From assembly GCF_016026235.1 (NCBI RefSeq), contig NZ_CP065613.1: a DNA stretch of 64,000 nt; one strand, written 5' to 3'. Positions 2,905-41,837 of this stretch are shown here, one piece after another (positions within the stretch are counted from its first letter, which is position 1; each line of letters opens with the position of its first letter). The notes below the pieces were generated by a model. The model searched no databases. It saw only the letters and a program-made list of their open reading frames with translations, and was not told where the DNA came from. The position numbers were made by a program, and so were the translations under genes. This DNA is from Escherichia coli. GTDB lineage: Bacteria > Pseudomonadota > Gammaproteobacteria > Enterobacterales > Enterobacteriaceae.

Positions 2905-2919
2905 GGTAATGACTCCAAC

Positions 2920-3423
2920 TTACTGATAGTGTTTTATGTTCAGATAATGCCCGATGACCTTGTCATGCAGCTCCACCGATTTTGAGAACGACAGTGACTT
3001 CCGTCCCAGCCTTGCCAGATGTTGTCTCAGATTCAGATTATGTCGCTCAATGCGCTGAGTGTAACGCTTGCTGATAACGTGCAGCTTTCCCTTCAGGCGT
3101 GATTCATACAGCGGCCAGCCATCCGTCATCCATACCACGACCTCAAAGGCCGACAGCAGGCTCAGAAGACGCTCCAGTGTGGCCAGAGTGCGTTCACCGA
3201 AGACGTGCGCCACAACCGTCCTCCGTATCCTGTCATACGCGTAAAACAGCCAGCGCTGACGTGATTTAGCACCGACGTAGCCCCACTGTTCGTCCATTTC
3301 AGCGCAGACAATCACATCACTGCCCGGTTGTATGCGCGAGGTTACCGACTGCGGCCTGAGTTTTTTAAGTGACGTAAAACCGTGTTGAGGCCAACGCCCA
3401 TAATGCGTGCACTGGCGCGACAT
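2920..3423 (-). CDS. insB: IS1 transposase InsB' frame (made as InsAB' fusion by -1 frameshift)
   Basis: 167-aa ORF matching IS1 InsB; overlaps insA in the -1 frame. Confidence 0.9.
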
Positions 3424-3617
3424 CCGACGCCATTCATGGCCATATCAATGATTTTCTGGTGCGTACCGGGCTGAGAGGCGGTGTAAGTGAACTGTAGTTG
3501 CCATGTTTTACGGCAATGAGAGCAGAGATAGCGCTGATGTCCGGCAGTGCTTTTGCCGTTACGCACCACGCCTTCAGTAGCGGAGCAGGAAGGACATCTG
3601 ATGGAAATGGAAGCCAC
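3342..3617 (-). CDS. insA: IS1 InsA (transposition inhibitor / N-terminal part of transposase)
   Basis: 91-aa ORF with C4 zinc-finger motif CPSC...CSHC. Confidence 0.9.
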
Positions 3618-3672
3618 GCAAGCACCTTAAAATCACCATCATACACTAAATCAGTAAGTTGGCAGCATTACC

Positions 3673-3681
3673 GCGGCACCT
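3673..3681. repeat. IS1 target-site duplication GCGGCACCT (copy 2)
   Basis: Identical to 2896-2904. Confidence 0.9.
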
Positions 3682-3711
3682 ATACAAATAACGTCGAGAT
3701 TATCCATATCA

Positions 3712-4548
3712 TTATTCCGCTTTGCCATCAGAACCGAACAGTTTAATTTTTTCCAATGCCCGTTCTTTTACAGCTTTACGTACTTCACGTTCTAAATGCA
3801 GGAAAGGCTGATCCTGGTTTTCTTTCACTGCGACCATTGCGGCCTGACAGAGCTCAGTATGGATGTTGATTTTCGCGATACCCAACGAAATTGCAGTTTT
3901 AATGTCGGCATCACTGATCCCCGATGCGCCATGCAAAACCAGCGGAACAGACACGGCATCGCGTACGCGTTTGACGACCTCAAAGTTCAATTGTGGCTCT
4001 GACGTATAAACCCCATGCTGGTTGCCGATGGCGACAGCCAATGAGTCACAGCCCGTACGTTCAACAAATTCAGCCGCCTGGTCAGGATCGGTATAGTGAT
4101 AGCCCGCCAGCGCTTCCTCATAAACGGTTTCATTACCGACATGCCCTAATTCCGCCTCTACCGGAATACCCAGCGGATGGAAGAAATCGACAGCCTCTTT
4201 GGTTAAGCGAATATTTTCTTCGAAATCAAATGCGGAAGCATCACGCATTAATGAATTCATACCATGAGTCCAGGCGTTATGAATAATCTCCATACTCCGA
4301 CCATGATCCCAATGAGTTATTACCGGCACAGTTGCTTTTCGTGCCATTGATACCATCATGTGAGAGAAATCTTCAAATGAGGTGTTGCCGACAAAACCTG
4401 TGCCAAAAGAAATAATAACCGGTGATTTCGCTTCTTCGGCTGCGTCGATAACGCCCATCAACATTTCTGCATTCCATACGTTAAAATGGGCAATTGCATA
4501 ATGTTTATTTGTGGCATCGTTTTCCCAATATCTGATATCTGCGAGCAT
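3712..4548 (-). CDS. ydjI: class II aldolase (fructose-bisphosphate aldolase family)
   Basis: 278-aa ORF; synteny. Confidence 0.9.
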   Translation of the reverse strand: MLADIRYWENDATNKHYAIAHFNVWNAEMLMGVIDAAEEAKSPVIISFGTGFVGNTSFEDFSHMMVSMARKATVPVITHWDHGRSMEIIHNAWTHGMNSLMRDASAFDFEENIRLTKEAVDFFHPLGIPVEAELGHVGNETVYEEALAGYHYTDPDQAAEFVERTGCDSLAVAIGNQHGVYTSEPQLNFEVVKRVRDAVSVPLVLHGASGISDADIKTAISLGIAKINIHTELCQAAMVAVKENQDQPFLHLEREVRKAVKERALEKIKLFGSDGKAE

Positions 4549-4568
4549 GTTCTGTTCTCCCGTATTAA

Positions 4569-5612
4569 TTAATCGCTAATTTTAATAACGCCTTTAATAA
4601 TGTCGCGTTTGTTGTTAACCGACTCTTCAAATGCCTGTTGTACATCACGGTAATCGTAAATATGTGTCACCATCGATTTCACATCGAATCGCCCTGAAGA
4701 AATAGCTTCAATCGTGACCGGATAACGATTGGCATAGCGGAATACCGTCTGGATAGTGACTTCGCGATTGATTTTGAGGAAATTGATTGCCGAATCGCCG
4801 GGTACAGTACCAACAATCATAATTTTACCGCCGCGCATTACCAGATAAGGTGCCTGTTTAACGGTGACCGCAGAACCCGCTGTTTCGAAAACAATATCTG
4901 CGCCCATGTCTTCGGTAAATTGCTGACAGCGTGCAATAGTGTCTTCTTTTGCGCCGTTAATAACCACTGTCGCACCAAGCTGTTCCGCCATTGTCAGACG
5001 TTTTTCCAGCACATCAACGACGGCAATTTCCGTTGCTCCCAGGCATTTGCACGCTTGCAACGTCATCAAACCAATACAACCCGCTCCTAGAATAATTATC
5101 TTCTTACCCGGTTTAACATCTGCCAGCATCGCGGCATGCATCCCGACTGCGGCAGGCTCCACCAGCGCCCCTTCCATCGTGTCCATATTGTCGGGCAGTT
5201 TGTAAGTAAAGCTCTCCGGATGACACAGATAGTGCGTTAATGCGCCGCGGTAGTTGGGTTGTGTCGCCATAAAATCAACGTCCGGGCAGATGTTATATTT
5301 GCCTTCCAGACAGTAACGACAGTGACCGCAAGGAACGCCAGGTTCGATATTTACCCGATCCCCCGGTTTAAATTTGCGCACGCGGCTTCCCACAGCCACA
5401 ACCGTCCCGGCGCATTCATGACCCTGGCCAATTTCTTGATTTGGGTCTTTAGGCGGAATAAACGGACCTGATTCAAAACCATGTACATCTGAACCACAAA
5501 TACCGACATATTCTACTTTAATCAAAACTTCATCTTCTTTAGGCACTGGTATTTCTGCTGAAATAATTTTCATTGTGCCCGGCACCTGCAATATTGCTTT
5601 TGAATTTTTCAT
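4569..5612 (-). CDS. ydjJ: Zn-dependent alcohol/sugar dehydrogenase
   Basis: 347-aa ORF; MDR family with GHE and Cys-rich structural zinc motif. Confidence 0.9.
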   Translation of the reverse strand: MKNSKAILQVPGTMKIISAEIPVPKEDEVLIKVEYVGICGSDVHGFESGPFIPPKDPNQEIGQGHECAGTVVAVGSRVRKFKPGDRVNIEPGVPCGHCRYCLEGKYNICPDVDFMATQPNYRGALTHYLCHPESFTYKLPDNMDTMEGALVEPAAVGMHAAMLADVKPGKKIIILGAGCIGLMTLQACKCLGATEIAVVDVLEKRLTMAEQLGATVVINGAKEDTIARCQQFTEDMGADIVFETAGSAVTVKQAPYLVMRGGKIMIVGTVPGDSAINFLKINREVTIQTVFRYANRYPVTIEAISSGRFDVKSMVTHIYDYRDVQQAFEESVNNKRDIIKGVIKISD

Positions 5613-5628
5613 TTTGAATCCACCCGTA

Positions 5629-7008
5629 TTATTTATTGGCTACTGCATCAATACTTAAACTTTCAACGGAGACACCTTTGGTTTCGATTCCAATGGTGGC
5701 GATAGCAATTGCGACAATAATTGAAACCGCCCCCAGAAGAATAAAGACTCCCGTAACGCCATAACTACTGAGCAGCACTGCAACGGCATAAGGTGCGGCA
5801 ATACCACTGATTCGCCCTACCGCATTCGCCAGACCGGAGCCACGGAGTTTGGCCTCTGTCGGCCAGATCTCAGGGACATACACTGCCGAGGCATAGCAAA
5901 CGTACATATAGACGAAAGTAATCAGGAAGAAACCAATCAACGTTATGAGCAACATGCTGGTTTGCAGTGAATAGATATATCCGAGCACCGCAATCAGGAT
6001 TAATAGCCCCACACCCATTGTTTTACGCGGAATTTTATCCATCACCAGCATGGCAATAAAAATGCCAAATGGCGCGCCAAACATACTCATGGTATTTAAA
6101 ACAATCGAGTCTTTTAAATTAATCCCCTGGGTCATGAATATCGTTGGCAACCAGTTAATTAGTGTGTACTGCACAACGTTCATGGCAATCAGCACACAAG
6201 AGCCTAATATCACGCGTTTCAGTAATACTCCTGTCAGTAAGGCTGAATACGGCACCGCTTGTGGCGTTTTACCGTCATCAGCAATAACCACGGGCGGCAA
6301 AGGTTTGCCCGTCTGGTGTATGACGCCTTCTTCTATACTCCGCATGACTTTCTCGGCTTCCTGATACCGTCCGCGCGATTCCAGCCAGCGCGGGGATTCA
6401 GGAAAGTAGCGCCAGGCCAGCGCCGTAGCGATAAGCGACAATATTGCAGGGATAAGCAGTTGTACCCGCCAGTTCCACTCTGCACTAATCAGCGGCGTGA
6501 GTCCCATCGCTATCAATGAACAGAGCGGATATGACCAGTTGCCAATAAAGGAAACCCGACTTGACCACGTTCCACGATTTCTACCGGGCATATATTCGGT
6601 GAAACCAGCAAACAGCGTAACCAGTAAAGCTCCCAGCCCAACTCCCATCACAAAACGGCAGGCAATAAGGAAATCCATATTCGGTGAGAAAGCACCGACA
6701 ACCATCGAGGCAATATGAATGGCCTCATAGAGGATGAACGCATTTCTGCGACCGGTTTTGTCGCCAATGATGCCGCCCACCAGCGCACCGAGAAACATTC
6801 CGGCGGTCGTGATTGCTGAGAATGTGGCTGTGGTGGAATTATCTGTCCAGCCCAACGCTTTCAGCTGCGCGAGGATCAAGCCACCAACGGCATTACTCCA
6901 GCAGACAAGCAAGCCAAACGCGACGATGGCAAACATTGACGAATGCCAGCGGCAATCCGGTAAGCGATCCAGCCGTGCACCACAATGCGGTTTTGTTATC
7001 TGTTCCAT
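5629..7008 (-). CDS. ydjK: MFS sugar transporter
   Basis: 459-aa polytopic membrane ORF; synteny. Confidence 0.9.
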   Translation of the reverse strand: MEQITKPHCGARLDRLPDCRWHSSMFAIVAFGLLVCWSNAVGGLILAQLKALGWTDNSTTATFSAITTAGMFLGALVGGIIGDKTGRRNAFILYEAIHIASMVVGAFSPNMDFLIACRFVMGVGLGALLVTLFAGFTEYMPGRNRGTWSSRVSFIGNWSYPLCSLIAMGLTPLISAEWNWRVQLLIPAILSLIATALAWRYFPESPRWLESRGRYQEAEKVMRSIEEGVIHQTGKPLPPVVIADDGKTPQAVPYSALLTGVLLKRVILGSCVLIAMNVVQYTLINWLPTIFMTQGINLKDSIVLNTMSMFGAPFGIFIAMLVMDKIPRKTMGVGLLILIAVLGYIYSLQTSMLLITLIGFFLITFVYMYVCYASAVYVPEIWPTEAKLRGSGLANAVGRISGIAAPYAVAVLLSSYGVTGVFILLGAVSIIVAIAIATIGIETKGVSVESLSIDAVANK

Positions 7009-7034
7009 GCGATAACGTTCCTTCAGGAAAGTTG

Positions 7035-8111
7035 TTATTCATCAAAGTCGTAAGTCATGATCACTTTGATTGCGGTTTTATCGACCATCGCATCAAACCC
7101 TTCGCGCCATTGCGACAGGCCGATACGATGCGTGATCATCGGTTTGACTTTGATAGCGCCGCTGACTAATAGCCTGATAGCGTTACGCCATGAGGTGGAG
7201 TCATAGGCCATATGCCCAATGATGCTTTTGTTCCAGGCGGTAATGTCATTAATCGAGAAATCAAGAGGTTTGAAGCCCATTCCAACGCGTACCACTTCCC
7301 CGTTCGGGCGGAGCATTTCGATGGCTTGTTTCAGTGCGATATTGGCACCGGAGCATTCAATCACCAGTCCCAGATTGTCTTTTCCACAAATTTGCTGGCA
7401 GCGCGCCACCACATCTTCGGTAGAACCATTTACTACTGCCGTCGCACCCAGTTCTTTTGCAACCGGGAAGCGGACCGCCACATCTTCTTGCAGACCAACG
7501 ACGACGATATTTACCGCCCCCATAATTCGCGCCATTTGTACGGAGAACAGCCCGAGTGGGCCAGTGCCGATGACGACCACATCCTGACCAGGAAGGAATT
7601 TCGATTGCTGCGCGATGGATTTGTAGGCATTACAGATAGGGTCAAGTACGGCTGCGTCCTCATAATCAACACCATCAGGGATTTCCCACAACGCATGACG
7701 ATGAATTTTGAGAATTTCACCAGGAACCAGACAATATTTGGAAAAACCACCGCCCCAGGTATTATTATCCAGACCAAGGTTTACTTTTTCTGTACAACAC
7801 AGAAAATCACCTTGTTCACAGGCCGGACAAACGCCGCAAACGTGACCGCTGTTATCCGATACGACGCGTTGCCCCACTTTCCAGTCTTTGACTTTTTCAC
7901 CAACCTGCGCAATACAACCTGCGAACTCATGGCCGCGGATAGAGTTAAACTCATCAGAACCGCTATCGACATTGTAGTGCTTCATGTCTGCGCCGCAGAT
8001 TGCCGCGGCTTTAATTTCAATCACTACATCTTCCGGGCCACACATGGGTTGTGGGACATCAATCATCTTGTAGCCGCCAAAGGCTTTGCCAAACCGAGCC
8101 AGTGCTTTCAT
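7035..8111 (-). CDS. ydjL: Zn-dependent dehydrogenase
   Basis: 358-aa MDR-family ORF; first gene of the ydjLKJIHG cluster. Confidence 0.9.
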   Translation of the reverse strand: MKALARFGKAFGGYKMIDVPQPMCGPEDVVIEIKAAAICGADMKHYNVDSGSDEFNSIRGHEFAGCIAQVGEKVKDWKVGQRVVSDNSGHVCGVCPACEQGDFLCCTEKVNLGLDNNTWGGGFSKYCLVPGEILKIHRHALWEIPDGVDYEDAAVLDPICNAYKSIAQQSKFLPGQDVVVIGTGPLGLFSVQMARIMGAVNIVVVGLQEDVAVRFPVAKELGATAVVNGSTEDVVARCQQICGKDNLGLVIECSGANIALKQAIEMLRPNGEVVRVGMGFKPLDFSINDITAWNKSIIGHMAYDSTSWRNAIRLLVSGAIKVKPMITHRIGLSQWREGFDAMVDKTAIKVIMTYDFDE

Positions 8112-8189
8112 TGCGTCATCCTCTGTGTTTTGTTTTGCTTAGATGGTCATCATACTTACCCACATGATTTTTGAGGTCAACATTAAATC

Positions 8190-8221
8190 TGTAAAACACA
8201 GATAATGATCTGCGTTTTACA
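8190..8221. promoter_or_regulatory. 32-bp near-perfect palindrome upstream of ydjL (candidate operator)
   Basis: TGTAAAACACAGATAATGATCTGCGTTTTACA, 28 of 32 positions dyad-symmetric, about 80 bp upstream of the ydjL start. Confidence 0.3.
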
Positions 8222-8480
8222 ACTCAGATCACAATTACGCAGAAAATGGCTGGTTCTGTTACAGGTTGATGGAAGGCTGAACGCAAAAGGAGCAAATTTG
8301 AGAGGGATTACCGGCCAAATAGGTCTGAGACTTAAGTTCAGGAGAAGTCATTCAAGCGTGAACGCGACGGCAAGAGACCGGGCTGGGGCTTTGCCTGGTC
8401 GTGACGAGATAATTGAGATGAGTCGTGGGGTTATTGTTGGCTATCCCCTTTATAACCGCGGCAAAAAGGGGACAAACCAC

Positions 8481-8753
8481 TTACTTAAACATGGCAATAG
8501 GCTTTGCTGAGATACCAAAATCTTCTTTTAACTGTTGTTTGCTCTTCATGACCATCTGACCATTTGTGTCAATTGTCATATGCTGTGCTTCGGTATTATT
8601 GCGGGCTTGCCACAGCATCACCAGTTGCAGGCAGTTCTCTTTTTGTTCCTCGGTCAACGCAACGCCATCAGGCCATTTCCCCAGTTCAACGGCGGTCGAC
8701 AAACGCTGGTATACCTCAGGCGTCATGCTGTTGATAATGTCATCAAGATTCAT
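8481..8753 (-). CDS. yeaC: DUF1315 protein YeaC
   Basis: ORF in track is 105 aa; start placed at MNLDD to match the 90-aa K-12 protein. Confidence 0.8.
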   Translation of the reverse strand: MNLDDIINSMTPEVYQRLSTAVELGKWPDGVALTEEQKENCLQLVMLWQARNNTEAQHMTIDTNGQMVMKSKQQLKEDFGISAKPIAMFK

Positions 8754-8794
8754 AATTTTTCCGCTCCTGTGGAATAAGTTGCTGAATCGTTTTT

Positions 8795-9208
8795 TCAACC
8801 GTTGATTTCTTCGCCGTTTTCGCCATCAGTGAAGCGTAAAGAAGCAGAGTTAACACAATAACGTTCGCCTGTTGGTTGCGGCCCGTCGGGAAAGACATGC
8901 CCCAGATGGGCATCACAGTTACCGCAACGAATTTCTATGCGCTGCATTCCATGTGACAAGTCTTTGATATAACGAATGGATTCTTCACTCACCGGTTCGT
9001 AGAAACTGGGCCAGCCACAGCCGGAATCATACTTGGTTTCGGAATGAAACAGCGGGGCATCGCAGATCAAACAGTGATATACGCCGTCACGCTTGTTATG
9101 CAGTAAACGACCCGTAAATGGCGGTTCTGTCCCATGATTCTGCGTCACGTAAAACTGCATCTCGGACAAATTTTTTTTCAGTTCTTCTGCCGAAGGTTTA
9201 TTAGCCAT
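8795..9208 (-). CDS. msrB: methionine-R-sulfoxide reductase MsrB
   Basis: CxxC...CxxC zinc motifs; start placed at [10 protein letters not shown] (137 aa). Confidence 0.9.
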
Positions 9209-9439
9209 TTGCTCACATCTCACTTTAATCGTGCTCACATTACGTGACTGATTCTAACAAAACATTAACACCAACTGGCAAAATTTTGTCCTAAACTTGA
9301 TCTCGACGAAATGGCTGCACCTAAATCGTGATGAAAATCACATTTTTATCGTAATTGCCCTTTAAAATTCGGGGCGCCGACCCCATGTGGTCTCAAGCCC
9401 AAAGGAAGAGTGAGGCGAGTCAGTCGCGTAATGCTTAGG

Positions 9440-9520
9440 CACAGGATTGATTTGTCGCAATGATTGACACGATTCCGCTTGACGCTGCGTAAGGTTTTTG
9501 TAATTTTACAGGCAACCTTT
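9440..9520 (+). promoter_or_regulatory. gapA promoter region
   Basis: TTGACG (9479-9484), 16-bp spacer, TAATTT (9501-9506) upstream of gapA; K-12 gapA is known to have multiple promoters. Confidence 0.45.
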
Positions 9521-9537
9521 TATTCACTAACAAATAG

Positions 9538-10545
<1,008 letters not shown>

Positions 10546-10566
10546 GTTGAGATGACACTGTGATCT

Positions 10567-10598
10567 AAAAAGAGCGACTTCGGTCGCTCTTTTTTTTA
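10567..10598 (+). terminator. rho-independent terminator of gapA
   Basis: Hairpin AGAGCGACTTCGGTCGCTCT followed by T7. Confidence 0.85.
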
Positions 10599-10628
10599 CC
10601 TGATAAAATGAAGTTAAAGGACTGCGTC

Positions 10629-11513
10629 ATGATTAAGAAAATTTTTGCCCTTCCGGTCATCGAACAAATCTCCCCTGTCCTCTCCCGTCGTAAACTGGAT
10701 GAACTGGACCTCATTGTGGTCGATCATCCCCAGGTAAAAGCCTCTTTTGCATTACAGGGCGCACACCTTCTCTCGTGGAAACCTGCGGGTGAAGAAGAAG
10801 TTCTGTGGTTGAGCAACAACACACCGTTCAAAAATGGCGTCGCTATTCGCGGTGGCGTACCGGTTTGCTGGCCGTGGTTTGGTCCGGCTGCACAACAAGG
10901 TCTGCCTGCGCACGGTTTTGCCCGCAACCTGCCGTGGACGCTGAAATCACATCATGAAGATGCTGATGGCGTAGCGCTGACTTTTGAATTGACACAAAGC
11001 GAAGAGACGAAAAAATTCTGGCCGCACGACTTTACGCTGTTAGCGCATTTCCGCGTGGGTAAAACCTGTGAAATCGATCTTGAAGCACACGGCGAATTTG
11101 AAACCACCTCTGCCCTGCATACCTACTTTAACGTGGGTGATATCGCTAAGGTAAGCGTCAGTGGGCTGGGCGATCGCTTCATTGATAAAGTAAATGACGC
11201 GAAAGAAGATGTACTGACCGACGGTATTCAGACCTTCCCTGACCGTACCGATCGCGTGTATCTGAATCCGCAAGATTGCAGCGTGATTAATGATGAAGCG
11301 CTGAATCGTATTATCGCCGTAGGCCACCAGCATCATCTGAACGTTGTCGGCTGGAACCCGGGACCGGCGCTTTCAGTTAGCATGGGCGATATGCCGGACG
11401 ATGGCTACAAGACCTTTGTTTGTGTAGAAACGGCTTACGCTTCAGAAACGCAAAAAGTGACCAAAGAAAAACCTGCACATCTGGCGCAATCCATTCGCGT
11501 TGCGAAACGTTAA
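10629..11513 (+). CDS. yeaD: glucose-6-phosphate 1-epimerase
   Basis: Start placed at MIKKIFALP (294 aa); synteny downstream of gapA. Confidence 0.85.
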   Translation: MIKKIFALPVIEQISPVLSRRKLDELDLIVVDHPQVKASFALQGAHLLSWKPAGEEEVLWLSNNTPFKNGVAIRGGVPVCWPWFGPAAQQGLPAHGFARNLPWTLKSHHEDADGVALTFELTQSEETKKFWPHDFTLLAHFRVGKTCEIDLEAHGEFETTSALHTYFNVGDIAKVSVSGLGDRFIDKVNDAKEDVLTDGIQTFPDRTDRVYLNPQDCSVINDEALNRIIAVGHQHHLNVVGWNPGPALSVSMGDMPDDGYKTFVCVETAYASETQKVTKEKPAHLAQSIRVAKR

Positions 11514-11563
11514 TTTACGTTAATGTTGTGTGCCGGGTGCGATGCATCCGGCACGTATCAACA

Positions 11564-12418
11564 TCACACCATATCCAGCGCAGTTTTTCCTTTTGGTGCC
11601 GGATATGCTTTGTCCAGCATGGCTAATTCCGCTGACGAAAGTTCGACCTCAAGCACAGCCGCATTCTGTTGGACATGGGCAATCGTGGCCGCTTTTGGAA
11701 TCGCCATCACACCCTGATGGCTGATTACCCACGCCAACAATACTTGTGCCGCGCTGATATTGTGAGCATGTGCAATTTCGTTGACTACCGCGTTTTTTAA
11801 CAGTCCATTGCGCAACCGCCCGGCCTGGGCTAATGGACTGTAAGCCATCACCGGCATCTGCTGTTGCTGGCACCAGGGGAGTAGATCGTACTCAATCCCT
11901 CGTGAACCGAGATGGTAAAGCACCTGATTAGTGGCACACTGATTTCCCCCCGGCAGCTGCCAGAGTTCCTGCATATCAGCATGATCAAGGTTAGAAACGC
12001 CCCAGCGGCGGATTTTTCCCTGGGCGATCAATTTTTCCATCGCTGCCACAGTCTCTTCAAAAGCGAAACTGCCAGACCAGTGTAATAAGTAGAGATCGAG
12101 ATAATCAGTATTGAGACGGCGTAAACTGGCTTCGCATGCATTTATCGCTTTTTGCCCGCCAGCATTCCACGGATAGACTTTAGAGACGAGAAAGACGTTA
12201 TCGCGCAGACCGGTTAATGCTTCCCCAACCACCTTTTCGGCACCGCCATCGGCATACATTTCGGCGGTATCAATGAGGGTTAAACCGAGCTCAATGCCCG
12301 CGCGTAGTGCAGCAACTTCTGTTTTGCGCTGACTGGCATCTTCGCCCATATACCATGTTCCCTGCCCTATGGCTGGCAGTGAGACATCGCCACTAAATTG
12401 AATCATTTTTTGTTGCAT
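11564..12418 (-). CDS. yeaE: aldo-keto reductase (methylglyoxal reductase)
   Basis: 284-aa ORF, AKR family. Confidence 0.9.
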   Translation of the reverse strand: MQQKMIQFSGDVSLPAIGQGTWYMGEDASQRKTEVAALRAGIELGLTLIDTAEMYADGGAEKVVGEALTGLRDNVFLVSKVYPWNAGGQKAINACEASLRRLNTDYLDLYLLHWSGSFAFEETVAAMEKLIAQGKIRRWGVSNLDHADMQELWQLPGGNQCATNQVLYHLGSRGIEYDLLPWCQQQQMPVMAYSPLAQAGRLRNGLLKNAVVNEIAHAHNISAAQVLLAWVISHQGVMAIPKAATIAHVQQNAAVLEVELSSAELAMLDKAYPAPKGKTALDMV

Positions 12419-29826: not shown

Positions 29827-30029
29827 TCGTTCTTTGCAGTTAATAACCTGCGTCATTTCACCTTTTATTGTTTCCGTTTCGTGTTTTATGGCTTTCCGTA
29901 TTCTTAATTGTTTAATTTATGTAACATGCAAATAATCAATTTGTTAAACACAACATACAACTCATTACCCTGCAAATAATTACAACTGGCAAAAGCCAGA
30001 GACGGGCTTTTATGCCCAGGAGATGACTC

Positions 30030-31640
30030 ATGATGAGCAATGTTAAGAAAAAAGATGTGCCGCTGATAAGCATCAGCCTGGTGGCCATTCTTTTCATCGC
30101 AGCTGCATTAAGCCTTTTCCCACAACAATCGGCCGACGCGGCCAACGCAATATACACTTTTGTTACGCGTACGTTAGGTTCCGCCGTACAGGTATTGGTT
30201 TTGCTGGCAATGGGACTGGTGATTTATTTAGCCACCAGTAAATACGGCAATATTCGTCTTGGCGAAGGAAAACCGGAATACAGCACGCTCTCCTGGCTGT
30301 TTATGTTTATTTGTGCCGGTTTAGGTTCTTCTACGCTTTATTGGGGGGTTGCTGAATGGGCCTATTATTATCAAACACCTGGATTAAATATCGCACCGCG
30401 TTCACAACAGGCACTCGAATTTAGCGTTCCCTACTCTTTCTTCCACTGGGGCATCAGCGCCTGGGCAACTTATACGCTGGCCTCATTAATCATGGCTTAT
30501 CACTTTCATGTGCGGAAAAACAAAGGTCTGAGCCTTTCCGGCATTATTGCTGCTATTACCGGCGTTCGCCCGCAAGGCCCATGGGGAAAACTGGTCGATT
30601 TGATGTTCCTGATCGCCACTGTCGGCGCACTGACCATTTCCCTTGTTGTTACCGCAGCAACCTTTACCCGTGGGCTTTCCGCGCTGACCGGTTTACCCGA
30701 TAACTTCACCGTGCAGGCATTTGTGATCCTGCTTTCCGGCGGCATTTTTTGCCTAAGCTCGTGGATTGGTATCAACAACGGTTTGCAACGTCTGAGCAAA
30801 ATGGTTGGCTGGGGCGCGTTCCTGCTGCCATTACTGGTGCTGATTGTCGGCCCAACCGAATTTATTACCAACAGCATCATCAATGCCATCGGCCTGACCA
30901 CGCAAAACTTCCTGCAAATGAGCTTATTCACCGATCCGCTTGGCGATGGTTCATTTACCCGCAACTGGACCGTTTTCTACTGGCTGTGGTGGATCTCATA
31001 CACCCCTGGCGTAGCAATGTTTGTCACCCGCGTTTCCCGCGGTCGTAAGATTAAAGAAGTTATCTGGGGACTGATCCTCGGCAGCACCGTCGGTTGCTGG
31101 TTCTTCTTTGGCGTAATGGAAAGCTATGCCATTCATCAGTTTATCAATGGCGTAATCAACGTCCCACAGGTGCTGGAAACACTGGGCGGCGAAACAGCTG
31201 TGCAGCAAGTTCTGATGTCGTTGCCAGCCGGTAAATTGTTCCTCGCCGCATACCTGGGTGTGATGATTATTTTCCTTGCCTCGCATATGGATGCGGTGGC
31301 CTACACCATGGCTGCGACCAGTACGCGTAATCTCCAGGAAGGTGACGATCCTGACCGTGGGCTGCGTCTTTTCTGGTGCGTGGTGATCACTCTGATCCCG
31401 CTTTCCATCTTGTTTACCGGTGCTTCGCTGGAAACGATGAAAACCACCGTCGTGCTCACAGCCCTTCCCTTCCTCGTCATTTTACTGGTGAAAGTCGGCG
31501 GATTTATTCGCTGGCTGAAACAGGATTACGCCGACATTCCGGCTCATCAAGTTGAACATTATCTCCCGCAGACACCGGTTGAAGCCCTGGAAAAAACACC
31601 AGTGCTCCCTGCGGGAACCGTATTCAAAGGCGACAACTGA
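30030..31640 (+). CDS. yeaV: BCCT-family transporter YeaV
   Basis: 536-aa ORF from an ATG with strong AGGAG at 7-nt spacing; the K-12 annotation as I recall it (481 aa) would correspond to an internal TTG at 30195. Confidence 0.8.
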
Positions 31641-32796: not shown

Positions 32797-32851
32797 TGAC
32801 ATCGGCGGCGGTATTTTCCGCCGCTGGGCTGATTTTTGATGGAGTACAGCA

Positions 32852-33817
32852 ATGTCAGACTATCAAATGTTTGAAGTACAGGTGAGTCAGGTGGAACCGC
32901 TTACCGAACAGGTGAAACGCTTCACGCTGGTGGCAACCGATGGCAAACCGCTGCCTGCGTTCACCGGAGGAAGTCACATCATTGTGCAGATGAGCGATGG
33001 TGATAACCAGTACAGCAATGCGTATTCACTACTGAGTTCGCCGCATGACACCTCTTGTTATCAGATTGCCGTTCGGCTGGAGGAAAACTCGCGCGGCGGT
33101 TCCCGCTTTTTGCATCAGCAGGTAAAAGTGGGCGATCGGTTAACGATTTCAACGCCTAATAACCTGTTTGCGCTAATTCCCTCAGCCAGAAAGCATCTGT
33201 TTATCGCGGGCGGTATTGGTATCACCCCTTTCCTGTCGCACATGGCAGAGCTGCAACACAGCGACGTCGACTGGCAGCTACATTACTGCTCGCGAAATCC
33301 AGAAAGTTGCGCATTTCGTGATGAGCTAGTCCAGCATCCGCAGGCTGAGAAAGTCCATTTGCATCATTCATCAACCGGAACACGACTGGAATTAGCGCGA
33401 TTATTGGCGGATATCGAACCTGGCACACACGTTTATACCTGTGGCCCCGAGGCGCTAATTGAAGCGGTAAGAAGTGAAGCTGCGCGTCTGGACATCGCCG
33501 CCGATACGCTGCACTTTGAGCAATTTGCTATCGAAGACAAAACCGGCGATGCATTTACCCTGGTGCTTGCCCGTTCCGGAAAAGAGTTTGTGGTGCCGGA
33601 AGAGATGACTATTTTGCAGGTTATTGAAAATAATAAAGCCGCGAAAGTGGAATGTTTATGTCGTGAAGGGGTATGCGGAACCTGCGAAACAGCAATACTG
33701 GAAGGTGAAGCTGACCATCGGGATCAATATTTTAGCGATGAAGAGCGTGCCAGCCAGCAAAGTATGTTGATCTGTTGTTCGCGTGCGAAGGGTAAACGCC
33801 TGGTGTTGGATTTGTAG
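32852..33817 (+). CDS. yeaX: carnitine monooxygenase reductase subunit (FMN / 2Fe-2S)
   Basis: 321-aa ORF with C-terminal plant-type ferredoxin cysteines. Confidence 0.9.
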   Translation: MSDYQMFEVQVSQVEPLTEQVKRFTLVATDGKPLPAFTGGSHIIVQMSDGDNQYSNAYSLLSSPHDTSCYQIAVRLEENSRGGSRFLHQQVKVGDRLTISTPNNLFALIPSARKHLFIAGGIGITPFLSHMAELQHSDVDWQLHYCSRNPESCAFRDELVQHPQAEKVHLHHSSTGTRLELARLLADIEPGTHVYTCGPEALIEAVRSEAARLDIAADTLHFEQFAIEDKTGDAFTLVLARSGKEFVVPEEMTILQVIENNKAAKVECLCREGVCGTCETAILEGEADHRDQYFSDEERASQQSMLICCSRAKGKRLVLDL

Positions 33818-33819
33818 TT

Positions 33820-33870
33820 TGCCGAAGCCGGATGTGGCGCTGAGCGCGCCCAGTCCGGCTTCGGAAGATT
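33820..33870. terminator. bidirectional terminator between yeaX and rnd
   Basis: Long hairpin GCCGAAGCCGGAT...GTCCGGCTTCGG between convergent genes. Confidence 0.6.
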
Positions 33871-34998
33871 TTACTGCGGATATTCCTGCAATAAATTGTG
33901 TAATGCTTCCGCCATCAGCTCACCACGCCAGCCGGAAATCAGCTCCGGCAAATTGTTCTGCGGTTTCAGTTTCCAGTGCCAGTTCAGCAGTTGGTTGATT
34001 TGCCGACGCGATGCCAGCAATTCGGCGCTGATCTTATGCGTTTCGCTCACGTCAGTAATCAGCGACTTAATCGCTTTAAACGCTTTACGATAACCCGGCA
34101 TGTCCATCAGGTTAAGCATCGGCTGCGGTAAGGCATCTTCCGGCAATGTCTGCGCTTTTTCCACCAGCGCCAGCAGCGTTTTACCGTGAAAGCGGATTTC
34201 GCTACCGGATAAACCCAGGCTGTCCAGTTCGCCTAAACTTCCCGGCATATAACGCGCTACCGACCACAAATGCTCTTCACGCACGACAAAGTTCACCGCC
34301 AGATCGCGCTCTCGCGCCTTGCGCAGTCGCCAGTCGGCTAACAGTTGCAGACAGGCCAGTTGGCGTGTGCGTAATTGCCAGGCATTGGTGATATCACGCC
34401 AGGCATCTTCCGGCGCAACGACTTCCTGACGACGCATTTGCATCAGGCGGCATTCATCCAGCGCCGCAGGTAGCCAGCCGGAGGCCTCCGTTTCTACCAT
34501 AAGCTTGGCGGTGATCGGTAACAGATACCAGACATCCGCCGCTGCGTATTCACACTGACGTTCGGTCAGCGGTCTGGCCAGCCAGTCGGTGCGCGATTCA
34601 CTCTTGTCCAGCGTAACGCCGGAATACTCTTCCACCATGGAAGCGAAACCCCATGACATCGGGCGTCCGCAGAAGGCAGCAAGGATTTGCGTGTCAATCA
34701 AGGGTTGTGGTAATTCGCCAAAGACATTGAGGAACACTTCCAGATCTTCACTGCCTGCATGGAGAAATTTTGTGATGGACGGATCGCGCAGGATCGCTTT
34801 CAGCGGTGACCAGTCGGTGATCCCGAGAGGATCAATTAGCGCCAGATGCTCGCCATCGAAAAGTTGAATCAACCCCAGCTGCGGGTAATAAGTGCGCGTA
34901 CGAACAAATTCAGTATCCAGGGCTATCGCCGGAAAGGCACGGACGGCTTCACACAAAGAAGCCAGCGCATCGTCCGTGGTAATCATTTGGTAATTCAA
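33871..34998 (-). CDS. rnd: ribonuclease D
   Basis: 375-aa ORF; DEDDy exonuclease plus HRDC. Confidence 0.9.
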   Translation of the reverse strand: MNYQMITTDDALASLCEAVRAFPAIALDTEFVRTRTYYPQLGLIQLFDGEHLALIDPLGITDWSPLKAILRDPSITKFLHAGSEDLEVFLNVFGELPQPLIDTQILAAFCGRPMSWGFASMVEEYSGVTLDKSESRTDWLARPLTERQCEYAAADVWYLLPITAKLMVETEASGWLPAALDECRLMQMRRQEVVAPEDAWRDITNAWQLRTRQLACLQLLADWRLRKARERDLAVNFVVREEHLWSVARYMPGSLGELDSLGLSGSEIRFHGKTLLALVEKAQTLPEDALPQPMLNLMDMPGYRKAFKAIKSLITDVSETHKISAELLASRRQINQLLNWHWKLKPQNNLPELISGWRGELMAEALHNLLQEYPQ

Positions 34999-35067
34999 AT
35001 TGTTTTCTCTTTAGTGGGCGTCAAAAAAAACGCCGGATTAACCGGCGTCTGACGACTGACTTAACGC

Positions 35068-36753
35068 TCAGGCTTTATTGTCCACTTTGCCGCGCGCTTC
35101 GTCACGTAATTCTCGTCGCAAAATTTTTCCGACGTTAGATTTCGGTAACTCATCACGAAACTCCACCAGCTTCGGTACTTTGTATCCCGTGAGCTGACGG
35201 CGGCAAAAAGTCACCAGTGACTCTTCGGTAAGCGATGGATCTTTTTTCACTACGAAGATTTTCACCGCTTCACCACTGGAGCCGGAAGGTACGCCAACAG
35301 CCGCGACTTCCTGTACGCCAGGATGCTGCATGACGACATCTTCAATCTCGTTGGGATAGACGTTAAAACCGGAAACCAGAATCATGTCTTTTTTACGATC
35401 GACAATGCGCAGGAATCCTTCTTCATCCATTACCGCGATGTCGCCGGTGTGTAACCAGCCATTTTTGATGATTTCATCGGTAGCATCGGGACGCTGCCAG
35501 TAACCCAGCATCACCTGCGGTCCTTTGACACAAAGCTCACCCGGTTGACCTGGTGGTACTTCATTATCATCATCATCCACCAGTTTGGCTTCCGTCGACG
35601 GCACCGGCAAACCGATGCTACCACTATGATAATCAATATCATATGGGTTAACGCTGACCAGCGGCGCACACTCGGTAAGGCCATAGCCTTCCAGCAGATA
35701 CTGTCCTGTCAGTTTCACCCAACGCTCTGCCACCACTTGCTGCACTGGCATCCCTCCGCCTGCGGAAAGATGCAGACTGGAGAAATCCAGCTGCTGGAAC
35801 TCTTTATTGTTCAGCAACGCATTGAACAAGGTGTTAACGCCCGTGATAGCGGTAAACGGATATTTCGCTAACTCTTTTACCAACCCTGGAATATCGCGCG
35901 GGTTAGTGATAAGCAGGTTCTGCCCACCCAGTTCGATAAACAGCAGGCAGTTAATGGTCAGGGCAAAAATGTGATACAGCGGCAGCGCCGTCACCACCAG
36001 CTCTTTGCCCGGATGCAACAGCGGACCATAGGTCGCGTTAACCTGTTCCAGGTTCGCCAGCATATTGCGGTGAGTCAGCATCGCGCCTTTCGCCACACCA
36101 GTGGTGCCGCCGGTGTATTGCAGAAAAGCTAAATCTTCCGGCACCAGTTCGGGTTTGACGTACTGCATCCGGTAGCCGTTATGCAGTGCGCTACGAAATG
36201 AAATGGCATCTGGCAGATGGTATTTCGGCACCAAACGCTTGATGTATTTAACAACGAAATTGACTACCGTGCCTTTTGCCGTAGATAGCTGATCGCCCAT
36301 ACGGGTCAGAATTACGTGCTGAACGGCGGTTTTATCAACCACTTTTTCCAGTGTGTGAGCAAAGTTAGACACGATAACAATCGCCGATGCGCCGCTATCG
36401 TTAAGCTGATGCTCAAGCTCACGCGGGGTATACAACGGGTTAACGTTTACGACGATCATCCCGGCACGCAAAATGCCAAACAGCGCCACCGGATATTGCA
36501 ATAAATTAGGCATCATCAACGCAACGCGATCGCCTTTCTTCAGCCCCAACCCTTGTTGCAAATAAGCGGCAAACGCGCGACTGCGTTCTTCCAGCTTGCG
36601 GAAGGTCATCACCTCCCCCATATTCACAAACGCAGGCTGATCGGCGTAGCGCGCGACCGACTGCTCAAACATATCTACCAGAGATTGATAACGGTCAGGG
36701 TTGATCTCCGTCGGAACGTCCGCGGGATAACGGTTAAGCCAAACCTTCTTCAA
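35068..36753 (-). CDS. fadD: long-chain fatty acid-CoA ligase FadD
   Basis: 561 aa from a TTG start ([14 protein letters not shown]); AMP-binding motif [11 protein letters not shown]; the ORF-track start 22 codons upstream is rejected. Confidence 0.9.
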
Positions 36754-36815
36754 TTCTTCACCTCTAAAATGCGTGTTCGTCGTCATCGCAACCCCAAATG
36801 ATATACATGCCGTTA

Positions 36816-36832
36816 ACATAATATTAACTCAT
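36816..36832 (-). promoter_or_regulatory. putative FadR operator in the fadD promoter
   Basis: AGCTGGTATGATGAGTT on the minus strand, 13 of 17 matches to the FadR consensus AACTGGTCNGACCAGTT as I recall it. Confidence 0.5.
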
Positions 36833-36957
36833 CATACCAGCTTGATAATTACCCAACGAAAAGGTTGCGAAGCGCGTCACTATTTATTTTTATCTTTACC
36901 GTAAGAATGCAGAAACAGCGGACCAGCCGCTGTTTCTTTTTCTTTAAAAACAAGCAA

Positions 36958-37539
36958 TTATTCAGTTACAACTGTTTGTACTCTCGCGGGGCCGGGATTA
37001 TACCAGCCCCATCCGCCGTAGCCATAGGGCCAGCCACGACCGCCATAAAACCATGGATCAATCGGCTGAGGCGGCATAATCACCTGCTGGGTTAAATGCC
37101 AACGTTTGTAACCCGTTACTTGCATCACCATAAATTTATAGGGCGTATTGCCGATTTTGCCGTCAACCGCACCAGTGATTGGCCCGACTACCGTAACCAG
37201 TTGTCCACGGAAATCCACCGGGTCCAGAAAACCGTTCACATCGGCATAAATGCGACCGCGAGAAGGTTCTCCCAGCGTCGGTCTGGCTCCGCTGTCCAGC
37301 GGTACGGTAGCAATTTCCAGGCGGGTTTTCCCTTGCTGGTTTTGTACCGCAACCACTTTGCCACCAAAGCGTGCCTCCTGACCAACGTACAGCTGCGGCG
37401 CACTCATCACCCGAACTAAATCTTGTTGCGGCGTGGGACTGCTGCCTTTAATGGCGTCCGGCACAGTGACACAACCGCTCAGCATTAGCGCAAACGTACC
37501 TGCCAGTATGCCTTTGATAACATTCTTTTGAACCGCCAT
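36958..37539 (-). CDS. yeaY: Slp-family outer-membrane lipoprotein
   Basis: 193-aa ORF with lipobox LSGC. Confidence 0.85.
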
Positions 37540-37578
37540 GATGCGACTCCTTTTTTTCTCAGGGCATACTCTTAAGAT

Positions 37579-38274
37579 TCATTCTTTGCCCGGAAGTTTC
37601 TTCCATGCGACGTTGTTACGTAAATAAACCGGTTCGGCATGTTCCACCGCCACCGTTTTACCCTCGGCAAACATCTGACAAGCAATCGGCAGCATATCTT
37701 CTGCAGCGGGGAGTAACACTTCGCCATCGCGCAAAACCAGCTCGCTCTCTTCACCGAGATCCGGCCAGGCTTGCCAGCCCGTCCCTACCGTCACCCATTC
37801 GCCGGAAAGCTGTTGCATTCGTTCATGAACGAGTTCGGGTTTGAGTACGGCTTCGGTTTCTTCACCGTGCCAGATACCGTTTTCATCACGCTGATATTCG
37901 GCCCAGTAAACTTCGCCCATTCGCGCGTCAATGGCTGACAGCACGCGTGTTGCGCCGTTTTTGCGCCACGCCCCTTGCGCCATCGTCATTAGCGTGGAGA
38001 CGCCAATCATCGGTAATTCCGCGCCAAGCGCCAGCCCTTGCGCGATGCCAATACCAATGCGCACGCCGGTAAAGCTACCGGGGCCGCGCCCGTAAGCCAG
38101 AGCGTTAATATCAGTCAGGGAAGTTCCGCTGGTGGTCAGGATATCCTGCACCATCGGTAAGATTCGTTGAGTATGTTCACGAGGGCAAAGCTCAAAATGA
38201 GCGTTGACAGTACCGTCGTTCCACAGGGCGACAGAGCAGGCCTCTGTCGCGGTATCGATAGCCAGAATTCGCAT
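37579..38274 (-). CDS. tsaB: tRNA t6A37 biosynthesis protein TsaB
   Basis: 231-aa [20 protein letters not shown]. Confidence 0.9.
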
Positions 38275-38331
38275 GGGTCTTCGTGCTTAGATCAATAAAA
38301 AGGCGCGCATCATACCATACTCCGTAACAAA

Positions 38332-40242
38332 TTACCTGGAGGATGGTATCGCAAGGAAACGAACCGCACGGGCAATGTCACGGGTGCGCGGCGCGGGCGG
38401 CAGACTGGCGAGAAACGTCGCACCGTAAGGGCGCATCACCAGCCGATTATCGCAAATCACCAGCACGCCGCGATCATCGGCGTCGCGAATCAGTCGCCCT
38501 ACCCCCTGCTTGAGAGTAATCACCGCATCCGGCAGTTGTACTTCATCGAACGGGTCGCCACCGCGCAAACGGCAATCTTCCATGCGCGCTTTTAACAGTG
38601 GATCATCAGGAGAGGTAAACGGCAATTTGTCGATAATCACCAATGACAGCGTATCGCCACGCACGTCCACCCCTTCCCAGAAACTGCTGGTTGCCACAAG
38701 AAGCGCGTTACCGGCACTGACAAATTGCTGCAACAGTTGCCCTTTGCTGGTTTCCCCCTGCAATAATACGGGAAGTGTCATGGTAGCGCGGAACTGCTCG
38801 GCCAGATCGCGCATCATGGCGTGCGAGGTACAAAGCATAAAACAGCGACCGTTGTTAGCTTCGATGATCGGGCGCAGCATAGCCGCCAGTTGCCGCGCGG
38901 AACCCGGTTGATTGGTTTGCGGCAGGTTGCGCGGCACACAGAGTAACGCCTGGCGGCTGTAATCAAACGGGCTTGGCAATAGCAACGACTCCGCCTGTTC
39001 TATCCCAAGCCGCGAGGTGAAATGATGCAGATCGTCGTTCACCGACAGCGTTGCTGAGGTGAAGATCCAGCTACCGGGCTTTTGCGCCATTAACTCTTTG
39101 AATTTATCCGCCACGCTGAGCGGCGTGAGAGCCAGAGTAAAATGGCGCGAAGTGCATTCGTACCAGTAGCTGTAGCCCGGCTGATTGATCTCTTTTAGCC
39201 GCTTCAGCCGTGTGCGATACAACGTGGCGCGCTCAAATGCCGCATCCAGCAAGGCGGAACGCCCCAGTGACAGTTTCGCCACGTCATAACAAAGTTCCAG
39301 GGTGTCATCGAGCAGTAAAAATGCCCGCTGAATTTGCGGATTAGCTAACAGCTCACGCAGGTTACCGCGATAACCTGGCTCACCGAGTTGCAGACGAAAA
39401 TCCTGCGCACTCTGGGCAAGACGATCAGCGCACTTTTGTAACTGCTGGGTGTCTTTTAATTCGGTGCGGTAAGCGATGGTGATGTCTTTTGCCAGGTCGA
39501 GCAGTTGTCGACTGGAGAGTGACTGACCAAAATACTGGCTGGCAATGTCCGGTAGCTGGTGGGCTTCGTCGAAGATCATGACGTCCGCTTCCGGGATCAA
39601 CTCGCCAAATCCACTCTCTTTAACCACCATATCCGCTAGAAAGAGATGATGGTTTACCACCACCACATCGGCGTCCATCGCTTTTTTACGTGCTTTGACC
39701 ACAAAGCAATCTTTATACATCGGGCAGTCGCTGCCAAGACAGTTGTCGTTGGTGCTGGTGACCAGCGGCCACGCCTGTGAATCTTCCGCCACGCTGACGC
39801 AGGTGCTGATATCACCATCGACTGTTTGATTAGACCAGGAGCGCAGCAGGATCACATCGCTTAAGATTTGTACCGGCAGTTCGTCCCCCGCCAGCGCCTG
39901 CTGTTCGAGACGTTCAAGGCAGAGGTAGTTTGAGCGCCCTTTCAGCAGCGCCACGTTGCCCGTGTATTTCAACGCCTTTGAGACTGTTGGCAAATCGCGG
40001 CTGTAGAGCTGATCCTGCAACGCTTTTGAGCCGGTCGAGATAATGACTTTCTTTTTCGCCCGCAGCGCAGGAGCCAGGTAAGCGTAGGTTTTGCCCGTAC
40101 CGGTTCCTGCTTCCACCACCAGCGGCTGGCCTTTTTCTATCGCCTGGGTGACGGCTACCGCCATCTGTCGCTGTGGTTCTCGCGGCTTAAAGCCTGGTAT
40201 CGCTTTCGCCAGCTGACCGTCTGGTGCAAAATCGTCCGTCAC
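38332..40242 (-). CDS. yoaA: DinG-family ATP-dependent helicase YoaA
   Basis: 636-aa ORF with Walker A GTGTGKT, DEAH box and Fe-S cysteines. Confidence 0.9.
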   Translation of the reverse strand: MTDDFAPDGQLAKAIPGFKPREPQRQMAVAVTQAIEKGQPLVVEAGTGTGKTYAYLAPALRAKKKVIISTGSKALQDQLYSRDLPTVSKALKYTGNVALLKGRSNYLCLERLEQQALAGDELPVQILSDVILLRSWSNQTVDGDISTCVSVAEDSQAWPLVTSTNDNCLGSDCPMYKDCFVVKARKKAMDADVVVVNHHLFLADMVVKESGFGELIPEADVMIFDEAHQLPDIASQYFGQSLSSRQLLDLAKDITIAYRTELKDTQQLQKCADRLAQSAQDFRLQLGEPGYRGNLRELLANPQIQRAFLLLDDTLELCYDVAKLSLGRSALLDAAFERATLYRTRLKRLKEINQPGYSYWYECTSRHFTLALTPLSVADKFKELMAQKPGSWIFTSATLSVNDDLHHFTSRLGIEQAESLLLPSPFDYSRQALLCVPRNLPQTNQPGSARQLAAMLRPIIEANNGRCFMLCTSHAMMRDLAEQFRATMTLPVLLQGETSKGQLLQQFVSAGNALLVATSSFWEGVDVRGDTLSLVIIDKLPFTSPDDPLLKARMEDCRLRGGDPFDEVQLPDAVITLKQGVGRLIRDADDRGVLVICDNRLVMRPYGATFLASLPPAPRTRDIARAVRFLAIPSSR

Positions 40243-40373
40243 ACTACCCCCTGTTGATTTGAACAGGGATTATGTCAGGATGAGGGCGCTTTCGCCAGTT
40301 GAAGTGGTGACGGCGACCTCACATTGTGGCAGTCTTTGCAGCACGAAAATGGAAGTATAATGAGGACAAAATG

Positions 40374-40718
40374 ATGACTATCGTTCGTATCGATGCTGAA
40401 GCCCGCTGGTCTGATGTAGTAATCCACAACAACACGCTCTACTACACTGGTGTACCGGAAAACCTCGACGCCGATGCCTTTGAGCAAACCGCCAACACGC
40501 TGGCACAGATTGACGCCGTGCTGGAAAAACAGGGCAGCAATAAATCGAGCATTCTGGATGCCACCATTTTCCTGGCCGATAAAAACGACTTCGCGGCGAT
40601 GAATAAAGCGTGGGATGCCTGGGTTGTCGCGGGTCATGCGCCGGTGCGCTGCACGGTACAAGCGGGTTTGATGAACCCGAAGTATAAAGTTGAAATTAAG
40701 ATTGTGGCTGCGGTGTAA
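40374..40718 (+). CDS. yoaB: RidA/YjgF-family protein YoaB
   Basis: Start placed at MTIVRIDAEARW (114 aa). Confidence 0.85.
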   Translation: MTIVRIDAEARWSDVVIHNNTLYYTGVPENLDADAFEQTANTLAQIDAVLEKQGSNKSSILDATIFLADKNDFAAMNKAWDAWVVAGHAPVRCTVQAGLMNPKYKVEIKIVAAV

Positions 40719-41113
40719 GCTTTATCGAAGCAAAATAAGTCAGACGATAATTTATCGATAATACTGGTCGGTTTTACATAAATCGACCAGAGAATAAGAT
40801 ATTACTGTTGATGCTTCTGCTAATTCATTATTTATATTTATAATTTCAATTTTATCTATAAAACTAACTATATAAATAAACATAAACATGCCGTTGTGTT
40901 CGCCCTTTGATTAGCAACTCTGGTTTTCTTTCTTAGCTGAACAATCTGGTTATAGCGTGCGGACTGACCGTTAATTTTCTCCATCTTACTGGATAACACA
41001 CCATGAACTGCTACTTTTAAAACACCTGAATGTCAACAGGTTAACTCGTGCCATATCGGGTGATGCTGCCAACTTACTGATTTAGTGTATGATGGTGTTT
41101 TTGAGGTGCTCCA

Positions 41114-41389
41114 GTGGCTTCTGTTTCTATCAGCTGTCCCTCCTGTTCAGCTACTGACGGGGTGGTGCGTAACGGCAAAAGCACCGCCGGACATCAGCGC
41201 TATCTCTGCTCTCACTGCCGTAAAACATGGCAACTGCAGTTCACTTACACCGCTTCTCAACCCGGTACGCACCAGAAAATCATTGATATGGCCATGAATG
41301 GCGTTGGATGCCGAGCAACTGCCCGCATTATGGGCGTTGGCCTCAACACGATTTTACGTCACTTAAAAAACTCAGGCCGCAGTCGGTAA
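41114..41389 (+). CDS. insA: IS1 InsA
   Basis: 91-aa ORF; differs from the 3342-3617 copy at 5 residues. Confidence 0.9.
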
Positions 41390-41811
41390 CCTCGCGCATA
41401 CAGCCGGGCAGTGACGTCATCGTCTGCGCGGAAATGGACGAACAGTGGGGCTATGTCGGGGCTAAATCGCGCCAGCGCTGGCTGTTTTACGCGTATGACA
41501 GTCTCCGGAAGACGGTTGTTGCGCACGTATTCGGTGAACGCACTATGGCGACGCTGGGGCGTCTTATGAGCCTGCTGTCACCCTTTGACGTGGTGATATG
41601 GATGACGGATGGCTGGCCGCTGTATGAATCCCGCCTGAAGGGAAAGCTGCACGTAATCAGCAAGCGATATACGCAGCGAATTGAGCGGCATAACCTGAAT
41701 CTGAGGCAGCACCTGGCACGGCTGGGACGGAAGTCGCTGTCGTTCTCAAAATCGGTGGAGCTGCATGACAAAGTCATCGGGCATTATCTGAACATAAAAC
41801 ACTATCAATAA
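41308..41811 (+). CDS. insB: IS1 transposase InsB' frame
   Basis: 167-aa ORF overlapping insA in the -1 frame. Confidence 0.9.
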
Positions 41812-41837
41812 GTTGGAGTCATTACCGGATTAGTGTG

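Follow-up and report, generated by a model that had tools for sequence, protein, structure and literature searches.

Two intact IS1 elements of different lineages in inverted orientation around a collinear gapA segment in an Escherichia coli chromosome

Escherichia coli K-12 carries two lineages of the insertion sequence (IS) IS1 that concern us here: IS1A and IS1E, which represent the IS1 'consensus' and are close to IS1R, and IS1F, also called 'type IV' or nu-like iso-IS1, which shows 73 mismatches to the consensus in K-12 and has been reported to be essentially immobile there (PMC12428005). In this study we consider a 64,000-nucleotide stretch of an E. coli chromosome (contig NZ_CP065613.1; the whole stretch is called the window below), in which an intact element of each lineage is found, an IS1F-type element at 2905–3672 (copy 1) and an IS1A-type element at 41059–41826 (copy 2), in opposite orientation on the two sides of a segment that includes gapA. 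Two described settings are the natural points of comparison. When inverted repeats recombine with each other, the intervening DNA is turned around, and inverted IS copies, such as those seen here, are the substrate of IS-mediated inversions in Shigella, many of which have been placed on Shigella branches (Seferbekova et al., 2021, PMC8072062); unlike in those cases, no inversion is seen at this locus, and with 8.7% divergence its two copies are well short of near-identity. In the wider IS expansion of Shigella and enteroinvasive E. coli (EIEC), IS1 is the dominant element, close relatives differ in their insertions, and both IS insertion and IS-associated deletion lead to gene loss (Hawkey et al., 2020, PMC7373316). 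The window resembles that expansion in each of these respects, and we find no difference in kind between the two.

Taken as a whole, the locus is with high probability the product of two separate, fairly recent transpositions by co-resident IS1 lineages, the one that gave copy 2 being most simply coupled with an adjacent deletion, and the two copies have not recombined with each other across the 37.4 kb between them. The setting would be a conserved part of the core genome in a Shigella/EIEC-like chromosome under IS expansion.

Two IS1 lineages in one window

The window contains only one long repeat, and its inverted arms, 2905–3672 on the minus strand and 41059–41826 on the plus strand, lie 37,386 nt apart. 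The arms are 768 nt each and align with 67 mismatches and no gaps (91.3% identity, 8.7% divergence); the mismatches are spread evenly over the whole element, and the longest stretch free of them is 51 bp. Chance falls far short of explaining 768 bp repeated at 91% identity. Both arms are IS1 elements: in addition to the exact length of 768 bp, they share imperfect terminal inverted repeats of ~23 bp (GGTGATGCTGCCAACTTACTGAT / GGTAATGACTCCAACTTATTGAT), the A6C frameshift motif AAAAAAC at position 307, a 91-codon insA that overlaps the insB' frame, and an InsAB' frame, fused by a –1 frameshift, that is open in both. Scored with the NCBIfam profile for the IS1 transposase (NF033558, cut-off 100 bits), the InsB' parts reach 147.9 and 143.7 bits and InsA alone 89–91 bits. 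The left inverted repeats (IRL) of the two copies point inward, and both outer ends of the pair are right inverted repeats (IRR). The original prediction had described two inverted IS1 copies about 38 kb apart, which is what we find, and the sequence differences it quoted are exact: InsA differs at 5 of its 91 residues (I4V, R7S, E15D, S69T, and V80I), and the IRL end, read in the orientation of the IS, is GGTAATGCTGCC in copy 1 and GGTGATGCTGCC in copy 2.

The codon differences between the copies are mainly synonymous (16 synonymous and 5 non-synonymous in insA, 30 and 14 in insB), which points to an old divergence under selection; judged by their codons, copy 1 and copy 2 represent two old, selectively maintained IS1 lineages. 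Copy 1 matches K-12 IS1F at 763 of 768 positions and has 68 mismatches to IS1A, which makes it an IS1F-type element, a type that lies ~9–10% from IS1A. Copy 2 matches K-12 IS1A at 766 of 768 positions, the two differences are silent, and it encodes the same InsAB' protein as IS1A and IS1E. Both types are widespread. Of the E. coli records, 3,926 have a best IS1 match that reaches 99% identity or more to copy 1, with many 100% copies at unrelated loci, and for copy 2 the number at the same threshold is 6,143.

One might nevertheless suppose that one copy was duplicated locally from the other and diverged in place, as the two have equal length, belong to one family and are less than 38 kb apart. 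Such a duplicate would have to have accumulated 8.7% divergence on a backbone that differs by 0.05% from a relative carrying neither insertion (FDAARGOS_943, described below), and each copy is at least 99.3% identical to its own widespread isoform. On these isoform assignments we reject divergence in place, to which we would give practically no credence. The original prediction had reached a related conclusion, calling the copies independent acquisitions of different isoforms. They are indeed different isoforms, and neither is a recent duplicate of the other, but separate horizontal acquisition is not required: since the IS1F and IS1A lineages already co-reside in E. coli, as in K-12, which has both, the two transpositions were separate without necessarily being separate acquisitions.

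Copy 1 is intact, with its IRR at 2905, its IRL at 3672, insA, insB' and the A6C motif all in place on the minus strand, and a perfect 9-bp target duplication, GCGGCACCT, borders the element at 2896–2904 on the left and 3673–3681 on the right; K-12 has this sequence once at the locus, at 1856894–1856902. The insertion point lies 26 nt within the K-12 coding sequence of ydjH, a sugar kinase gene, and the first nine codons are cut off. The gene thus truncated at its 5' end occupies 1983–2904 on the minus strand, and tblastn with K-12 proteins, by which the integrity of ydjH, yoaC and the other genes was judged, recovers only residues 10–315 of YdjH. All this points to a simple insertion of an IS1F-type element into the 5' end of ydjH, with the 9-bp duplication made in the process.

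K-12 IS1F is like copy 1 in its length of 768 bp, in the GGTAATGCTGCC variant of its IRL and in an InsA that is the same except for two residues. Unlike copy 1, whose frame is open, it has W163* and three substitutions in InsAB', and these changes offer a simple possible reason for the lack of transposition of K-12 IS1F. As the K-12 element is a decayed copy and copy 1 an intact one, the immobility reported for K-12 need not apply to the IS1F lineage as such. The open InsAB' frame, the fresh 9-bp duplication, and an identical twin of copy 1 elsewhere in a near-identical genome together indicate that the IS1F-type lineage is mobile in this background, through its own transposase or in trans.

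The near-identical genome is FDAARGOS_943 (NZ_CP065615.1, 860001–955000), the closest E. coli record, which has 33 mismatches to the window in ~61 kb (99.95% identity). It has neither of the two IS1 insertions nor a third IS of the window that we come to below, and all of its own IS sites in the region differ from those of the window. The twin of copy 1, identical at 768 of 768 positions, lies between ydjF and ydjE in this chromosome, and IS1A-type copies that differ from copy 2 by 2 nt lie at other sites. The absence of the window's insertions from so close a relative implies that they are recent, and the twin together with the IS1A-type copies elsewhere implies that both IS1 lineages have moved since the two chromosomes separated. 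Protein look-ups with PabB and YeaE led only to widespread E. coli contigs in which the insertions of the window are absent.

The yoaC deletion and recurrent IS1 target sites

Copy 2 is likewise intact, on the plus strand with its IRL at 41059 and its IRR at 41826. Unlike K-12 IS1A, it is without a target duplication and adjoins a 489-bp deletion that removes yoaC, a circumstance that the original prediction overlooked. The flanks of the element differ, being GCCATATCG on the left and GGATTAGTG on the right, where the latter, at 41827–41835, is presumed to be the original target, of which no second copy is left. At the junction 41058–41059, directly left of the IRL, the K-12 sequence 1894052–1894540, with all of yoaC, is missing, and we ascribe the missing duplication to this adjoining deletion. 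An exact-match scan for the deletion junction in species-representative genomes gave no hit. The presumed precursor state can be seen in E. coli BL12 and two sister strains, which have an intact yoaC and an IS1 99.5% identical to copy 2 that is oriented alike, ends on the right at the identical junction and is flanked by GGATTAGTG at either end. The 8–9-bp target duplication typical of a simple IS1 insertion, present around copy 1 in the window itself, is thus seen for the junction of copy 2 in BL12.

Deletions that begin exactly at the end of an IS and leave the IS in place are the classical outcome of intramolecular IS1 transposition, known as adjacent deletion, and we lean toward an IS1-promoted adjacent deletion as the probable cause of the loss of yoaC. 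In the order of events that we infer, an IS1A-type element would have inserted at GGATTAGTG, between yoaC and yoaH, and intramolecular transposition into GCCATATCG would then have removed 498 bp leftwards from the IRL end, that is, one copy of the 9-bp duplication and the 489 bp that include yoaC.

A structure that looks the same would be expected if IS1 copies in direct orientation had been present both at GCCATATCG, upstream of yoaC, and at GGATTAGTG, downstream of it, and RecA-dependent exchange between them had left one hybrid IS1, without a duplication and without any transposase-mediated deletion. Double insertions of this kind are plausible, as IS1 repeatedly targets the yoaB-yoaC-yoaH spacer, mostly in the (+) orientation. 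However, in none of the 5,426 E. coli genomes searched for junctions and target sites (the annotated collections contain no Shigella genomes) does an IS1 abut the left flank of copy 2 with its IRL, the nearest recurrent site being 32 bp off, and IS1 classically promotes deletions from its own end, by a general mechanism that has also been linked to absent duplications (PMC11708052). Exchange between direct copies is thus a possibility to be kept in mind, at odds of being correct that we would call rather poor, and adjacent deletion is the account we carry forward.

The two insertion points deserve attention in their own right. The 5' end of ydjH (window 2896–2930) is a recurrent IS1 target in unrelated E. 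coli, with all the elements in the same orientation as copy 1. In two further E. coli lineages (E1433 and STEC346) an IS1 lies 19 and 25 bp from the copy 1 site, and in E. coli TUM1857 an IS1B-type element occupies the exact position of copy 1, with the same GCGGCACCT duplication and in the same orientation; the isoform of copy 1 itself was found at the ydjH site in none of the complete E. coli genomes. The AT-rich yoaB-yoaC-yoaH spacer (window 40719–41840) is a second place where IS1 recurs in E. coli. The site CAAATTAA, between yoaB and yoaC, has received different isoforms, in either orientation, and STEC276 has an IS1 together with a partial yoaC deletion in the spacer. IS1 prefers AT-rich hot spots, and the recurrent sites here agree with this preference. 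As unrelated lineages re-use these sites, a common site is not proof of common ancestry.

This last point bears directly on the TUM1857 element. Sameness of position, duplication and orientation, combined with a different isoform, is what one would see if the IS1 in ydjH were an old insertion, common by descent to the window and TUM1857, whose isoform was later swapped by gene conversion. Yet TUM1857 matches the window at only 97.5% in its flanks, while ydjH is uninterrupted in FDAARGOS_943, a relative at 99.95% identity; the elements 19 and 25 bp away in two other lineages mark the place as a hot spot; and at another site of the region, CAAATTAA, different isoforms have likewise inserted, there in either orientation. 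The divergence of the TUM1857 flanks and the empty site in FDAARGOS_943 lead us to reject an ancestral insertion with conversion of its isoform, which we consider very improbable.

Certain considerations do weigh against the two recent transpositions that we prefer. As the targets recur in unrelated E. coli, there is a slight possibility that one of the insertions is of greater age than it seems and has been lost or converted in the relatives, and the deletion at copy 2 could equally be explained either by recombination between direct IS1 copies, as discussed above, or by a single event of insertion with deletion.

Going one step further, and only tentatively, we can imagine that both places are genuine IS1 hot spots with an orientation bias, where different isoforms have inserted at the very same base (GCGGCACCT in ydjH, GGATTAGTG near yoaH) in lineages of E. 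coli and Shigella that are unrelated to each other. If this were so, a DNA structure or a host factor might steer IS1 to these positions, or else the loss of ydjH and yoaC might have been selected repeatedly.

The segment between the two copies

The inter-IS1 segment, 37,386 bp at 3673–41058, begins with ydjI, takes in gapA and the yea genes and ends with yoaB. With K-12 MG1655 as the reference for collinearity (megablast of the window against K-12 positions 1,853,999–1,915,197), the window resolves into five collinear blocks of 98.8–99.3% identity, and the segment has the K-12 order and orientation throughout. The four interruptions are copy 1, 224 bp at 29934–30157, copy 2, and a 1.5-kb insertion at ~47316–48832. 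Besides ydjH and yoaC, the 63 other K-12 genes of the window are all intact.

According to the original prediction, homologous recombination between the copies would invert the intervening segment, and a comparison of gene order among related strains was expected to show whether inversions end at these elements. As a statement of principle this is correct. However, the segment is collinear with both K-12 and FDAARGOS_943, copy 1 has kept both halves of its target duplication, and the junction that an inversion would create, represented by a synthetic query joining the ydjH flank to the reversed yoaB flank, was covered in one place in 0 of the 5,426 E. coli genomes; no inversion with endpoints at these IS1 copies was found in K-12, FDAARGOS_943 or this collection. 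The ydjI–yoaB segment has not been inverted. The two copies simply happen to lie in inverted orientation, and the 37.4 kb retain their ancestral order and orientation.

In E. coli, repeats that differ by ~9% undergo RecA-dependent exchange less often than identical repeats, the reduction amounting to between one and several orders of magnitude, owing to the homology requirement and to mismatch repair. With 8.7% divergence and 51 bp as the longest identical run, exchange between copies 1 and 2 is expected to be strongly depressed, and the pair should make a poor recombination substrate; identical copies elsewhere in an IS1-rich genome should be far better partners for either of them. It is conceivable that the two copies, in spite of their divergence, still bring about rare inversions of the gapA segment within a population, and we consider this much less likely than the orientation-biased hot spots contemplated above.

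Inverted IS1 pairs are also able to mobilise the DNA between them, as IS1 composite transposons, and both outer ends of the present pair are IRR. Let us assume, then, that the two elements and the enclosed DNA had moved as a unit of 38.9 kb. The enclosed DNA would be expected to be foreign to its place, and the unit to be bracketed by a single duplication; the enclosed DNA is, however, native core chromosome in its K-12 place and order, copy 1 has a 9-bp duplication of its own, the outer flanks of the pair, GCGGCACCT and GGATTAGTG, do not form a duplication, and the nearest relative has the segment without either IS1. The differing outer flanks and the native enclosed DNA cause us to reject a composite transposon, the probability of which we take to be negligible, and we return to two separate transpositions.

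A side observation concerns the 224 bp at 29934–30157, which were considered as a possible IS or other mobile element and rejected as such. They are the normal 5' end of yeaV, missing from K-12 MG1655 through a deletion there; YeaV has 536 aa in the window and in FDAARGOS_943 compared to 481 aa in K-12.

The IS-rich background and the meaning of the pair

The third IS of the window, at ~47316–48832 on the minus strand between pdeD and yoaE, is ISSso6, a member of the IS110 family. Its DEDD-type IS110 transposase scores 246 bits with NF033542 (cut-off 140 bits), and the element is 99.7–99.9% identical to annotated ISSso6. Compared to an annotated copy encoding 375 aa, it has lost 1 nt near the 3' end, which throws the transposase out of frame after ~residue 322; unless the missing base reflects a sequencing error, the window copy is probably inactive. 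Owing to the frameshift, a look-up of its ORF gave no match. The flanking bases CGTT[A/G]ACGC on the left and TTAC on the right are common to two independent copies of ISSso6, which fits the sequence-specific targeting expected of the IS110 family. ISSso6 has been listed for the chromosomes of Shigella sonnei 53G and Shigella boydii Sb227, and not for those of Shigella dysenteriae Sd197 and Shigella flexneri 301 (PMC7373316).

With three IS in 64 kb the window is dense in such elements. The median E. coli genome in our collection has IS1 at 11 places, which by simple arithmetic corresponds to ~0.14 IS1 per random 64-kb window, with two or more in fewer than 1% of windows; a load of 165 IS1 per 5 Mb would give ~2 per window. 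The four reference Shigella chromosomes have 105–272 IS1 copies and 229–373 IS in total, compared to a median of 32 IS in E. coli (PMC7373316). FDAARGOS_943, for its part, has a chromosomal ipaH3 nearby, five IS in the matching 95 kb (three IS1, one IS5, and one IS66), and ISSso6 at 14 places. The differing IS sites of the window and FDAARGOS_943 indicate, as a separate observation, parallel IS expansion in sister lineages. A Shigella or EIEC strain is marked by hundreds of IS copies over its whole genome, by ipaH and by the invasion plasmid. The original prediction had taken the IS density as a sign of a Shigella-like or otherwise IS-rich background, and this finds good, if indirect, support in the three IS of the 64 kb, in the identity of the third IS as ISSso6 and in a nearest E. 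coli record that is ipaH-positive and IS-rich; the nature of the organism, which we infer from these indications, would be that of a Shigella/EIEC-like strain with an IS-expanding chromosome. The text and supplements of Hawkey et al. (2020, PMC7373316) make no mention of ydjH or yoaC.

The isoforms, the insertion and the adjacent deletion described here are already known, textbook IS1 biology, and the importance of the locus goes little beyond annotation: the window is marked as part of an IS-expanded, Shigella/EIEC-like chromosome, and what is known of IS1 is left unchanged. Within these bounds, two gene losses caused by IS are documented, the truncation of ydjH and the deletion of yoaC; an IS1A-type and an intact IS1F-type lineage are seen to have both moved since the split from the closest sequenced E. 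coli relative; and the pair provides a concrete example of inverted IS1 copies with the DNA between them uninverted.

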